Source of the DNA: a virus
Lineage: Duplodnaviria > Heunggongvirae > Uroviricota > Caudoviricetes
Virus record (IMG/VR): IMGVR_UViG_2634166492_000001
Reading direction: 5' to 3' (one strand)
Length of the DNA stretch: 5,018 bases
Shown here one piece after another: positions 38 to 5,018 of the stretch (within the stretch, counting starts at the first letter, position 1; the number at the start of each line of letters is the position of its first letter). Below the pieces are notes generated by a model that had not been told where the DNA came from, did not search any database, and saw nothing but the letters and a program-made list of their open reading frames with translations. The position numbers and the translations under genes were made by a program.

Positions 38-1214
<1,177 letters not shown>

Positions 1215-1250
1215 TGGAGCACCTGTGTTGTTCTGAGGTGAGCATATCAC

Positions 1251-1286
1251 CTCTGTTCAGGTGGCCAAATTCAGTGTGCCACTTCA
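1251..1286. repeat. IS911-like left terminal inverted repeat (IRL); inner boundary approximate
   Basis: Minus strand reads TGAAGTGGCACACTGAATTTGGCCACC from 1286 inward, matching the IRR at the 8 terminal bases and at the TGGCCACC block. Confidence 0.75.
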
Positions 1287-1376
1287 TTTCTTGCCTCAAA
1301 TGGCAGTACGTTAACTATTCAGTCAAATGGTGCGGCGTTTACTGCCACAACCATCAAGATAATCGCGGAGCAGTGA
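1287..1376 (+). pseudogene. 3'-terminal 29 codons of an ORF interrupted by the IS (possibly the tail-needle gp26-position gene by P22 synteny)
   Basis: Frame is open from the first base after the IS end (FLASNGSTLTIQSNGAAFTATTIKIIAEQ) to TGA at 1374..1376, which overlaps the next gene's ATG (TGATG), a typical coupled junction. Identity of the gene is inferred from position only. Confidence 0.4.
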
Positions 1377-1831
1377 TGATTCAGTTCAAACCAACGCGAA
1401 ACATCGACCTGATCGAAGCAGTAGGAAATCACACTGACATTATCGCCGGGAGCAACAACGGCGATGGATACGACTACAAGCCTGAATGCCGTTACTTTGA
1501 GGTTAACGTGCACGGGCAGTTCGGCGGAATTGTTTACTATCAGGAGATTCAGCCGCTAACCTTTGATTGCCACGCCATGTACCTGCCAGAGATTCGTGGA
1601 TTCAGCAAGGAAATCGGGCTGGCGTTCTGGCGATACATTCTGACTAACACCACCGTTCAGTGCGTCACATCGTTCGCTGCGCGCAAATTCCGCCACGGTC
1701 AGATGTACTGCGCAATGATTGGCCTTAAGCGTGTAGGAACCATCAAGAAATACTTCAAAGGCGTGGATGACGTGACGTTTTACAGCGCCACACGCGAAGA
1801 ACTAATCGACTTCCTGAATCACGGGAGATAG
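1376..1831 (+). CDS. P22 gp14-position protein (151 aa), function unknown
   Basis: ATG at 1376 with GGAG 5 nt upstream; stop TAG at 1829..1831. It sits immediately upstream of the gp7-like gene, as gene 14 does in P22. The track ORF start at 1214 lies inside the IS and is rejected. No motif recognised by eye. Confidence 0.8.
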   Translation: MIQFKPTRNIDLIEAVGNHTDIIAGSNNGDGYDYKPECRYFEVNVHGQFGGIVYYQEIQPLTFDCHAMYLPEIRGFSKEIGLAFWRYILTNTTVQCVTSFAARKFRHGQMYCAMIGLKRVGTIKKYFKGVDDVTFYSATREELIDFLNHGR

Positions 1832-1833
1832 CC

Positions 1834-2526
1834 ATGTTATATGCATTTAAGCTGGGCAGAAAACTGCGCGGCGAGGAACCTTATTGCCCTGAAAAAGGCG
1901 GGAAAGGTGGCAGCTCTGATAAAAGCGCAAAGTATGCAGCAGAAGCTCAGAAGTATGCCGCAGACCTGCAAAATCAGCAGTGGCAGACGATCATGAAAAA
2001 CCTTGCTCCGTTCACGCCTCTTGCGGAGCAGTATGTTAACCAGCTTCAGAACCTTTCCAGTTTAGAAGGTCAGGGGCAGGCACTTAATCAGTATTACAAC
2101 TCTCAGCAGTATAAAGACCTTGCAGGTCAGGCTCGTTACCAGAGTCTTGCTGCTGCGGAGGCGACGGGTGGACTTGGTTCGACAGCCACAAGCAATCAAC
2201 TGGCTACGATCGCGCCGACACTCGGTCAGTCTTGGTTATCAAACCAGATGAGCAATTACAACAATCTGGCAAACGTTGGGCTTGGTGCGCTGCAAGGTCA
2301 GGCAAACGCCGGGCAGACATACGCCAACAACATGAGCAGCATTGCACAGCAAAGCGCAGCTCTTGCCGCTGCTAATGCCAATAAACCATCAAGTCTTCAG
2401 ACAGCAATTAGTGGCGGAACGTCTGGTGCGATTGCCGGTGCAGGTCTTGCCAGCCTTTTGGGAATATCAACACCTTGGGGCGCTGGCATTGGTGCTGGTA
2501 TCGGATTGCTTGGCTCGTTGTTTTAA
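1834..2526 (+). CDS. DNA-ejection (E) protein, P22 gp7-like (230 aa)
   Basis: ATG at 1834 with GGGAGA upstream, 2 bp after the previous stop. Q/N/A-rich protein with a Gly-Ala-rich hydrophobic C-terminus; size matches what I recall for P22 gp7 (about 229 aa) and position matches gene 7. Confidence 0.85.
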   Translation: MLYAFKLGRKLRGEEPYCPEKGGKGGSSDKSAKYAAEAQKYAADLQNQQWQTIMKNLAPFTPLAEQYVNQLQNLSSLEGQGQALNQYYNSQQYKDLAGQARYQSLAAAEATGGLGSTATSNQLATIAPTLGQSWLSNQMSNYNNLANVGLGALQGQANAGQTYANNMSSIAQQSAALAAANANKPSSLQTAISGGTSGAIAGAGLASLLGISTPWGAGIGAGIGLLGSLF

Positions 2527-2535
2527 GGGGTAATC

Positions 2536-3867
2536 ATGGCTACTTGGCAAGGATCAAATGGCGGATTGTTAGCTGGTATCGGCGGCGTCAACTCAAACGC
2601 TCCGAACGTAAATGACATCGGCAATACGCTTCAGCTTATCAGGCAGAACAATGATATTGAGCGTTCAGGCGCTAACAATGTTGGGCTGACTGCTTTGCAA
2701 GGCCTTTCAGGTATTGCGGGGGTGTTTCAGCAGGAAAAGCAGGCTCAGCGGCAGAAAGAATTTCAGCAGGCGTACGCTAATGCTTATGCGTCTGGTGATC
2801 GCGGTGCTTTGCGTCAGTTGGCTACTCAATATCCAGACCAGATTGAATCCGTTCGTAAAGGCATGGGATTCATTGATGAAGACCAGCGTAATTCTATCGG
2901 CACCTTAGCGGCTGGCGCACGCCTTGCGTCATCGTCTCCAGAAGCAATGCAATCATGGCTGCAAAACAACGCCGGTGAGTTAGCTCGTGTTGGCGTTAAT
3001 CCTCAGGACGTCGCTCAGATGTACCAACAGAACCCGCGGCAGTTCGGCGAATTTGTCGATCACCTGGGGATGAACAGTCTCGGACCCGAAAAATACTTTG
3101 ACCTACAGGATAAAATGCAGGGTCGCCAGGTTACCATGCGCGGTCAGGACCTGGATTCGCAAACCGCCGCTCGGAATCAGGCAATCACAATGCGCGGGCA
3201 AGATATCCAGGCGAATTTAGGTCAGCAGCGCATTAATCTGGACGCAGAAACAAACCGCATTAACAACGAAAATAAGCGCCTTGACCGGATGCTATCAGCA
3301 GAAACTAACGACCTGAAGCGCCAGGAAATACAGAGCCGCATAGCAGCCAACAACCAGCAGTTGCAGCAGAAGCAGCAAGCGCTAAATGATGGCTACAAAG
3401 ACGGCATCAACACCCTCACAACCAGCATGTTCACTCTGAACGATATCGTTAGTTCTCCTTCACTTAAGAGCATTACAGGCTTACGTGGAGTAATCCCCAA
3501 CGTTCCAGGCTCACAGGCTGCAGACACTCAGGCACGACTTGATACCTTTAAATCCCAAGCATACCTGACAGCGGTTCAGGCCATGCGAGGCATGGGCGCA
3601 CTTTCTGATGCCGAGGGCAAAAAGCTCGACCAGGCTGTTGGTTCGCTGCAGAACTCGCAGAGCGAGGAGTCCTTTCGTCGCAACGCTGGCGTCATCCTGA
3701 ACACGCTCAACCAGAAGCGTAATGAGGCGGTTGGTAAGTACGTTCAGCAAAACGGTATCAAGCGAGTGGAAGCGCCTCAGGCTTCTATAGATTACCTGAA
3801 GCAGCACCCCGAGCTGTCAATCGACTTCATTAATCGCTACGGATATCTTCCATCTTTGGGGCAGTAA
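2536..3867 (+). CDS. DNA-ejection (E) protein, P22 gp20-like (443 aa)
   Basis: ATG at 2536 with AAGGGG upstream; stop TAA at 3865..3867. Q-rich, predicted coiled-coil protein in the gene 20 position; P22 gp20 is about 471 aa from memory. Confidence 0.8.
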   Translation: MATWQGSNGGLLAGIGGVNSNAPNVNDIGNTLQLIRQNNDIERSGANNVGLTALQGLSGIAGVFQQEKQAQRQKEFQQAYANAYASGDRGALRQLATQYPDQIESVRKGMGFIDEDQRNSIGTLAAGARLASSSPEAMQSWLQNNAGELARVGVNPQDVAQMYQQNPRQFGEFVDHLGMNSLGPEKYFDLQDKMQGRQVTMRGQDLDSQTAARNQAITMRGQDIQANLGQQRINLDAETNRINNENKRLDRMLSAETNDLKRQEIQSRIAANNQQLQQKQQALNDGYKDGINTLTTSMFTLNDIVSSPSLKSITGLRGVIPNVPGSQAADTQARLDTFKSQAYLTAVQAMRGMGALSDAEGKKLDQAVGSLQNSQSEESFRRNAGVILNTLNQKRNEAVGKYVQQNGIKRVEAPQASIDYLKQHPELSIDFINRYGYLPSLGQ

Positions 3868-4473
3868 ATGGCTAATTACCGTGATTTGTTAGAGCAGGCT
3901 GGCGCACGTTACGGTGTGCCAGAAGGGTTGATGACTGCACTGGGTGCCAAGGAGTCTTCTTACAACCCTGCCGCAGTAAGCTCCGCCGGGGCTGTAGGAT
4001 TGACTCAGGTCATGCCTGGGACATGGCGTGATATGGGTTATACCGATGAGCAAATGCAAAACCCCGAATATCAGGCTGACGCTGGCGCGCGCTATCTGGC
4101 AAAGATGTACCAGCAGTTTGGTAACTGGCGTGACGCTCTTCAGGCTTATCACGACGGTCCCGGCAACGTTATGAAGGCAAAGCGTGGTGAATATACGCCA
4201 GGACCTGAAGGCCGCGGTTACGTTGATGATCGCTTTGCTCAATGGGCTGGTGACCCGGTGACAGACTCAACAGTCGAACAGCGCGCCACCTCTGCAAAGG
4301 TACATCCTCAGCAAGACCCTAACAACCCGTTTGCACAACTGGAAGTACAGTCATCCGAACAAGTATCGGCATCAGGTGTGCAGTCAGACCCAAATAATCC
4401 ATTTGCTCAGATTGAGCAGCAGGCAGCCAGTCAGCATGCCTTCGCAACTCTTCACTATGGCGCGTTCTTTTAA
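3868..4473 (+). CDS. SLT-domain lytic transglycosylase (201 aa) in the third ejection-protein (gp16) slot
   Basis: ATG at 3868 directly abuts the previous stop (TAAATG). Family-1 lytic transglycosylase motifs are readable: [24 protein letters not shown] (E-S ... GLxQ, catalytic Glu at 3952..3954) and [10 protein letters not shown] (AYNxG-like). C-terminal third is low complexity with two DPNNPFAQ repeats. Confidence 0.85.
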
Positions 4474-5018
4474 AGCCGTAGCCAATGGCAAAATTTATAT
4501 CGGAAAAATTGACACTGACCCGGTAAATCCTGAAAACCAGATTCAGGTTTATGTAGAGAATGAAGACGGATCTCACGTCCCTGTTTCTCAGCCAATTGTT
4601 ATCAATGCTGCCGGATATCCTGTGTACAACGGGCAGATTGCCAAATTTGTAACTGAGCAAGGCCATTCAATGGCTGTATATGATGCGTATGGTTCGCAGC
4701 AGTTCTATTTTCAGAATGTGCTGAAGTACGATCCTGATCAGTTAAAGCAGTTACTTCAATCAGATGAAGGAGCTGCTCACATTGGCACTAATAGCGGAAA
4801 AAATCTCCAAGAGGAGCTATTTGCAATAAAAAATGAAATATATCAAGACCCGCTTACATCGTGGCCTTTCGGTGGAACATTAAAAATAAAGCAAGGGGTG
4901 TACGATATCGCGTCACCACTCGTTCTTGATTACGGCAACTATGACGCTAAATTTATTGGTTCGACAGGAGTCCGTGCTCATTATTCCGGAGAAAATATGG
5001 CAGAAACGATATTTAACT
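4436..5018 (+). CDS. Tailspike protein, 5' part (P22 gp9-type head-binding domain then divergent receptor-binding module); continues beyond window
   Basis: Translation ...[48 protein letters not shown]...[27 protein letters not shown] aligns almost residue for residue with recalled P22 gp9 residues about 10-113. No stop before 5018. Start is ambiguous (ATG 4436, ATG 4457 or TTG 4412); the frame is open back to 4262. Confidence 0.9.

Follow-up and report, generated by a model that had tools for sequence, protein, structure and literature searches.

Does a short protein with a lytic transglycosylase domain, found where a P22-like phage would encode its large gp16 ejection protein, represent a naturally compact member of the ejection set, or is it what was left of a larger gene after a deletion? 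A sequence-only reading of the viral DNA presented above proposed both possibilities for a 201-codon open reading frame (ORF) at positions 3868-4473. The whole stretch analysed, hereafter the window, is an entire short draft contig of 5018 bp (AMWM01000449.1, assembly GCA_000826695.1). Our comparisons favour the second possibility, with a probability of roughly 0.93: the ORF would be what is left of the gene for a gene-16-type ejection protein in a P22-like temperate phage, truncated and in effect a pseudogene.

The transglycosylase domain and its gene neighbourhood

The features of the window on which the argument is built are as follows.

38-1286, minus strand: complete IS911, 100% identical over 1249 bp to the IS911 copies on Shigella flexneri pCP301, cutting the prophage off upstream inside the tail-needle gene
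1287-1375: last ~90 bp of the tail-needle (gp26) gene, preceding the gp14 homologue
1376-1831, plus strand: gp14 homologue (DUF2824), 151 aa, intact (Pfam and PHROG)
1834-2526, plus strand: gp7 homologue, first ejection protein, 230 aa, intact (PF25688, E=1.4e-134, full length)
2536-3867, plus strand: gp20 homologue, second ejection protein, 443 aa, intact (PF16928, E=1.5e-67; phrog_2534 over its full length; same length as Sf101 gp12)
3868-4473, plus strand: ORF of 201 codons from ATG to TAA, predicted 5' remnant of gene 16 (codons 1-189) followed by 12 foreign codons and the stop
3886-4197, plus strand: predicted SLT domain (residues 7-110), complete, a family 1 lytic transglycosylase of GH23 type (PF01464; Slt70, E=5e-11; T7 gp16 N-terminus, E=5e-4)
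3952-3954, plus strand: predicted catalytic Glu29 codon (E-S motif), aligned with Slt70 Glu478 in QESAWNP, the sequence being read directly
4315-4410, plus strand: linker after the SLT domain, native gene-16 sequence, with two copies of DPNNPFAQ (residues 150-157 and 174-181), both identical in Sf101 gp13
4433-4436: deletion junction with the 4-bp microhomology AGCA, at gene 16 codons 189-190 and tailspike codons 11-12 (three-way alignment; BLAST breakpoints)
4435-4473, plus strand: foreign codons 190-201 and TAA; from 4437, tailspike DNA out of frame, identical to Sf101 tailspike codons 12 onward
4436-5018, plus strand: tailspike gene without its first 11 codons and its own start, running off the contig end (Head_binding PF09008, E=1.3e-54, from profile position 20)

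The ORF had been described as a 201-aa protein with clear SLT motifs; its limits proved exact, and a profile search bore the domain out. The Pfam SLT family (PF01464) matches residues 7-110 over profile positions 2-110 of 117 with E=3.1e-26, scoring 91.7 bits against a gathering cut-off of 21.3, a match far beyond chance. In the alignment with E. coli Slt70, Glu29-Ser30 corresponds to the catalytic Glu478-Ser479, GLTQ (residues 44-47) to GLMQ and AYHDG (residues 93-97) to AYNAG, the motifs thus being kept, and automatic annotation already names the ORF a 'lytic transglycosylase domain-containing protein'. The C-terminal catalytic domain of Slt70 (PDB 1QSA) is also the closest solved structure by sequence (E=5e-11), and the family 1 lytic transglycosylases MltC and EmtA/MltE are similar as well. 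Unlike these cellular enzymes, which are exported to the periplasm, the ORF would represent a phage virion-protein domain devoid of an export signal, no hydrophobic signal sequence being present at the N-terminus when read directly from the translation. An Rfam scan of the window gave no match.

The placement of the ORF at the gp16 position by synteny was likewise upheld. It begins one base past the stop of the gp20 homologue, with no gap, and the order of gp7 homologue, gp20 homologue and ORF indicates that it occupies the gp16 slot, as the third gene of a gp7-gp20-gp16 block that lies upstream of the tailspike head-binding domain. At the other end of the block, a 205-codon ORF that can be drawn from a TTG at 1214 (window 1214-1831) is an artefact whose first 54 codons cross the IS911 end and the tail-needle remnant; the true gene within it is the 151-codon gp14 homologue starting at 1376.

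A first sign of truncation came from the PHROG comparison. The best match, phrog_21143 (E=1.5e-134), spans 576 positions, and residues 1-190 of the ORF cover positions 1-190 of that profile only, which makes the ORF a 5' fragment of a PHROG 21143 member.

Full-length relatives and the deletion junction

The window between 3400 and 4440 is ~99% identical in megablast searches of phage genomes to the P22-like phages Sf101, IME10, Huey, Dewey, APC_JM3.2 and phiKp_30, after which the match ends; DNA identity with Sf101-type relatives is 99-100% as far as base 4436. At the protein level, 188 of the first 190 residues of the ORF are identical to those of Sf101 gp13 (YP_009153087.1), and the two are unrelated past residue 189. 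The proteins that fill the gp16 slot of close relatives measure 797-911 aa in every case, compared with the 201 aa of the ORF, the following having been located in comparator stretches.

6469-9204 of its comparator stretch: Sf101 gp13, 911 aa, annotated 'transglycosylase' / 'lytic tail fiber protein'
6469-9096 of its comparator stretch: Huey gene-16-slot protein, 875 aa, annotated 'DNA transfer protein'
5583-7976 and 5082-7475 of their comparator stretches: two E. coli prophage gene-16-slot proteins, 797 aa each

An E. coli prophage protein of this length, WP_087503468.1 (797 aa), is recorded as a 'lytic transglycosylase domain-containing protein'. Full-length proteins with the SLT domain and gp16 sequence are thus already in public records, under names that include 'transglycosylase', 'lytic tail fiber protein' and 'DNA transfer protein' and with a PHROG of their own, and the window copy is a deletion derivative of an already known, annotated protein. 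In searchable open full text, mention of an SLT-type gp16 was limited to annotation-level uses of 'transglycosylase' in Lederbergvirus genome papers.

These relatives also settle what the slot originally contained. P22 gp16, whose length had been given as about 609 aa and was confirmed as 609 aa, shares 81% identity between its residues 53-189 and residues 221-353 of Sf101 gp13 (E=1e-67), which identifies the full-length parents as true gp16 homologues. The earlier suggestion that the slot holds a short transglycosylase rather than a large gp16-type protein therefore does not stand, since full-length relatives contain the gp16 segment and the slot did hold such a protein. In the window ORF itself no similarity to P22 gp16 was detectable (best E=1.5), and the gp16 core (the equivalent of P22 gp16 residues 53-189) is absent, as it falls inside the deleted segment. 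The family is thus a gp16 homologue that has an SLT domain and a Q/P-rich linker, together ~215 residues long, where P22 gp16 has its first ~50 residues. The comparison with gp16 homologues that the sequence-only reading had proposed consequently had an informative outcome: full-length relatives do exist, and what follows their SLT domain is the DPNNPFAQ linker, the gp16 core and a variable C-terminus.

The C-terminal parts of gene 16 vary among the phages, Dewey matching Sf101 gp13 over residues 1-348 only and IME10 diverging earlier, and the association of one SLT module with differing C-terminal parts is mosaicism of the kind that P22-like ejection genes usually show. More distant proteins from IME_EC2, Lumpael, Skarpretter and Kosakonia phages, annotated 'DNA transfer protein' or 'transglycosylase', are of similar length and 31-34% identical over 65-99% of Sf101 gp13, which makes the SLT-gp16 architecture old and widespread. 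The two DPNNPFAQ copies (4315-4338 and 4387-4410) are exact repeats placed 24 residues apart, between the SLT domain and the position of the gp16 core. Several draft S. flexneri contigs break in this linker or just past it, giving rise to partial proteins of 154-170 aa.

The suspected deletion at the 3' end of the ORF is real. It was located at 4433-4436 by aligning three sequences, namely the window, a central portion of Sf101 gene 13 and the beginning of the Sf101 tailspike gene. The window tracks Sf101 gene 13 through ...CAGTCAGCA, up to base 4436, and tracks the Sf101 tailspike gene from AGCATGCCTTCGCAACTC..., starting at base 4433. In the window itself ...CAGTCAGCA is followed directly by TGCCTTCGC..., and AGCA (4433-4436) is the sole overlap between the two parent sequences. 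BLAST breakpoints fall in the same place, the gene-16 match ending at 4436-4440 and the tailspike match beginning at 4429-4430. The join is out of frame, and the TAA that ends the ORF arises by chance.

The implied deletion amounts to 2601 bp when measured against Sf101, 2331 bp against the E. coli SB0258h1 prophage and 2024 bp against the E. coli 7/2 prophage, the resulting size of ~2.0-2.6 kb being taken from relatives and not from the exact parental phage. The missing segment comprises the other 600-700 codons of gene 16 as well as the intergenic sequence, where Sf101 and SB0258h1 have a small opposite-strand gene that the SB0258h1 annotation assigns to the Arc family. We also considered the converse event, an insertion in the relatives instead of a deletion here, and rejected it on the grounds that the window tailspike lacks the first 11 codons present in Sf101. 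Genes 16 and 9 are essential in P22. The window, missing both the tailspike N-terminus present in Sf101 and a part of a gene that is essential in P22, hence represents the derived state, which indicates in turn that the deletion arose in a resident prophage.

The tailspike gene was damaged at its other side of the same junction. What is missing is the ATG and first 11 codons (MSDITANIVVS in Sf101), and from ~4430-4436 the window matches the 5' part of the tailspike gene of phages (Sf6, 99%), with 99.5% identity to the Sf101 tailspike over 4430-4834. The only in-frame tailspike ATGs are those at 4436 (equivalent to Met12) and 4457 (equivalent to Met19), either of which has been picked by gene callers. 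Both ATGs precede the stop of the remnant (4471-4473), by 16-37 nt, so that translation of the tailspike would need a weak or coupled restart. The ribosome-binding region of the gene is also lost, and in the upstream direction the tailspike frame can be read without a stop back to a TTG at 4331, within the gene-16 remnant. The tailspike is itself a mosaic, its first ~135 codons being 99.5% identical to Sf101 and 99% to Sf6, after which identity drops to ~88% or less.

Reality and distribution of the junction allele

The window is a short draft contig, 5018 bp long and ending in repeats or unplaced sequence, a setting in which an assembler could have fused the beginning of gene 16 with the tailspike gene as a chimera. 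The probability of such an artefact is practically nil. Five Logan contigs that were assembled independently, from different runs, encode an identical 201-aa protein and are 99.9-100% identical in DNA to the window across the junction, and a separately deposited NCBI protein named Shigella flexneri (HCR7049512.1, partial) carries the same foreign C-terminal residues at a contig end; together they establish the junction as real and exclude an assembly artefact.

The allele has a restricted distribution. No place in 5426 complete E. coli genomes spans the junction, and the exact 47-nt junction sequence found no match among GTDB species-representative genomes, so that the allele is carried by no species representative. 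In the same 5426 genomes the SLT module is present at >=95% identity (that is, at least 95%) in 70, and the adjacent tailspike head-binding sequence in ~1085. Within the 90% identity cluster of the protein, the 29 other members are all fragments from the ends of contigs, and those with a name are labelled partial; one of the 29 has the same deletion allele, and a native short C-terminus was found in none. A separate observation concerns E. coli YJR_complete (NZ_CM146016.1, 1547659-1547743), in which the match is confined to the final 85 bp of the SLT-linker module, apparently another truncated copy; the annotation at this match lists an antitermination protein N and a lytic transglycosylase protein, and an independent rearrangement of the same gene may be involved.

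With these results the first of the two possibilities can be weighed, namely that of a naturally compact and functional third ejection protein, a free-standing virion SLT enzyme that replaces the large gp16. It would draw on a complete SLT domain lying in the gp16 slot and on the precedent of T7 gp16 for a murein hydrolase within an ejected protein, to whose N-terminus the ORF has a weak match (E=5e-4). We nevertheless regard it as extremely improbable. The last 12 residues of the ORF derive from out-of-frame tailspike DNA, and the event that supplied them took away the tailspike start codon; the close relatives are all of 797-911 aa; the other 29 cluster members offer contig-end fragments and no native short C-terminus; and the junction occurs in 0 of 5426 complete E. 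coli genomes as against 70 for the SLT module. Moreover, with genes 16 and 9 essential in P22, a phage bearing the deletion could not spread, and the prophage is in addition interrupted by IS911. The alternative first put forward, 'naturally compact or truncated by deletion', is thus decided for truncation, compactness being contradicted by the length of the relatives, the partial phrog_21143 match and the tailspike origin of residues 190-201.

A defective serotype-converting prophage

The truncated gene lies in a locus that has decayed elsewhere too. The IS911 element is complete, as judged by direct reading of its inverted-repeat ends, and lacks a target-site duplication, the flanking three bases differing (TCT vs TTT). 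The 37 bases to its left (1-37) have no match in the phage comparators or in any complete E. coli genome, the contig being limited by these 37 bp past IS911 on one side and by the interior of the tailspike gene on the other. The lack of a target duplication and the unmatched flank argue that IS911 marks a rearrangement or deletion and not a simple insertion, and suggest that the prophage upstream of this point was lost in an IS-mediated deletion or rearrangement.

Longer sister contigs extend the view downstream. There the tailspike gene runs for 552-559 codons from internal ATGs, and beyond it lies a gene of 421 codons on the other strand; the tailspike 3' end and this gene (gtrX) are 97% identical to the SfX glucosyltransferase record L05001.1, which points to an SfX-like O-antigen-converting prophage. 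Record L05001.1, when compared with sister contig positions 1487-4504, was seen to contain the 3' end of the same tailspike gene itself. Taken together, these similarities place the locus in a defective, decaying SfX-like serotype-converting prophage, assigned to Shigella flexneri from the named S. flexneri proteins with the same allele, IS911 and gtrX. Missing from the prophage are at least the start of the tailspike, the greater part of gene 16 and, in this place, all that lay upstream of the 3' end of the tail-needle gene, and in such a decayed element it is likely that the gtr genes alone matter to the host.

Could the truncated protein nonetheless have been retained for a host role, being expressed from the cryptic prophage in local murein remodelling or as a toxic or lytic product? 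Its catalytic motifs are intact, several S. flexneri isolates share the allele, and gp14, gp7 and gp20 beside it show no damage. Such an exaptation is very unlikely all the same. The copies are 99.9-100% identical in DNA, including their flanks and the out-of-frame part, which indicates recent clonal descent and not selection, and with an N-terminus that lacks a hydrophobic signal a cytoplasmic product cannot reach the murein. Nor is there an evident means of expression: no sigma-70-like promoter was found on the plus strand in 1200-5018, an absence that is expected of late-operon genes, and the upstream IS911 transposase genes are oriented away from the ORF. More specifically, that S. flexneri has co-opted the 22-kDa SLT fragment as a free murein hydrolase, or has kept it together with gp14, gp7 and gp20 as a functional unit, appears highly improbable. 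Some residual expression and enzymatic activity of the remnant may persist, considering that the SLT domain is complete and that gp14, gp7 and gp20 are full length.

We therefore return to the remnant of an ejection-protein gene as the preferred reading, according to which the short protein would comprise the first 189 residues of an ejection protein of ~800-900 residues and be an ordinary gene remnant, not a new compact protein. The intact parent, of ~800-900 aa, would have had an N-terminal SLT domain (~residues 1-125), the low-complexity DPNNPFAQ linker, the gp16 core and a C-terminal part that varies. On the model of T7 gp16 and P22 gp16, the virion would have contained this parent protein and released it before the DNA, its N-terminal domain cutting murein locally and the rest helping to build a trans-envelope conduit. 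In the prophage state, a deletion of ~2.0-2.6 kb would then have joined gene-16 codon 189/190 to tailspike codon 11/12 at AGCA, removing everything gp16-like, the Arc-like stretch between the genes and the start codon of the tailspike, and leaving an ORF that ends after 12 foreign codons. The 201-aa product, if made, would have a complete SLT fold; having neither a signal peptide nor a virion through which to reach the periplasm, it is most likely inert. Residing in a defective prophage, the remnant most likely cannot act as an ejection protein, and it is probably non-functional.

Comparison with the ejection proteins of P22 and T7

With the proteins of Sf101 (gp13), Huey, IME10, Dewey, APC_JM3.2 and the E. 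coli prophages, the window gene shares its slot, the SLT domain and the DPNNPFAQ linker; unlike them, it loses the gp16 core and the C-terminal 600-700 residues, which are replaced by the 12 out-of-frame tailspike codons. Likeness to P22 gp16 lies in the syntenic position and in the segment of the full-length relatives that is 81% identical to P22 residues 53-189. In contrast to P22 gp16, a protein of 609 aa that has no SLT domain, the window ORF retains the SLT extension and linker only. A part for P22 gp16 in a trans-envelope channel has been proposed.

The sequence-only reading had further seen here a possible P22-like lineage of ejection proteins with an N-terminal murein-cleaving domain, arranged as in T7 gp16. 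The presence of the gp16 core in Sf101 gp13 supports such a lineage at the level of the predicted proteins. As in T7 gp16, with its catalytic Glu37, the intact parent would be the third and the largest of the ejection proteins and would begin with an SLT-type domain. Residues 11-126 of T7 gp16 align weakly (E=5e-4) with residues 3-112 of the ORF, the SLT domains alone being aligned, and the likeness is to be taken as an architectural analogy that covers this domain. Unlike T7 gp16, the parent belongs to the P22-like phage group, which has no internal core stack, and the window copy is truncated. T7 gp16 is an ejected internal virion protein whose N-terminal transglycosylase opens the murein and which has a role in the trans-envelope channel (PMC8954989). 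An amber fragment of P22 gp16, 171 residues long, went undetected in particles (PMC8402733), a result that fits N-terminal gp16 fragments being not assembly-competent, the P22 fragment being not homologous to the part kept here.

In itself, the ORF represents routine prophage decay by deletion and IS insertion beside the serotype-conversion genes of Shigella flexneri, and is of minor significance. Of broader interest are its intact relatives, for a sizeable minority of P22-like phages and prophages (Sf101, Huey, Dewey, IME10, APC_JM3.2) carry a predicted T7-gp16-like N-terminal lytic transglycosylase domain on their gp16 homologue, and it is these intact relatives, not the truncated window copy, that should be taken for comparisons of the ejectosome.
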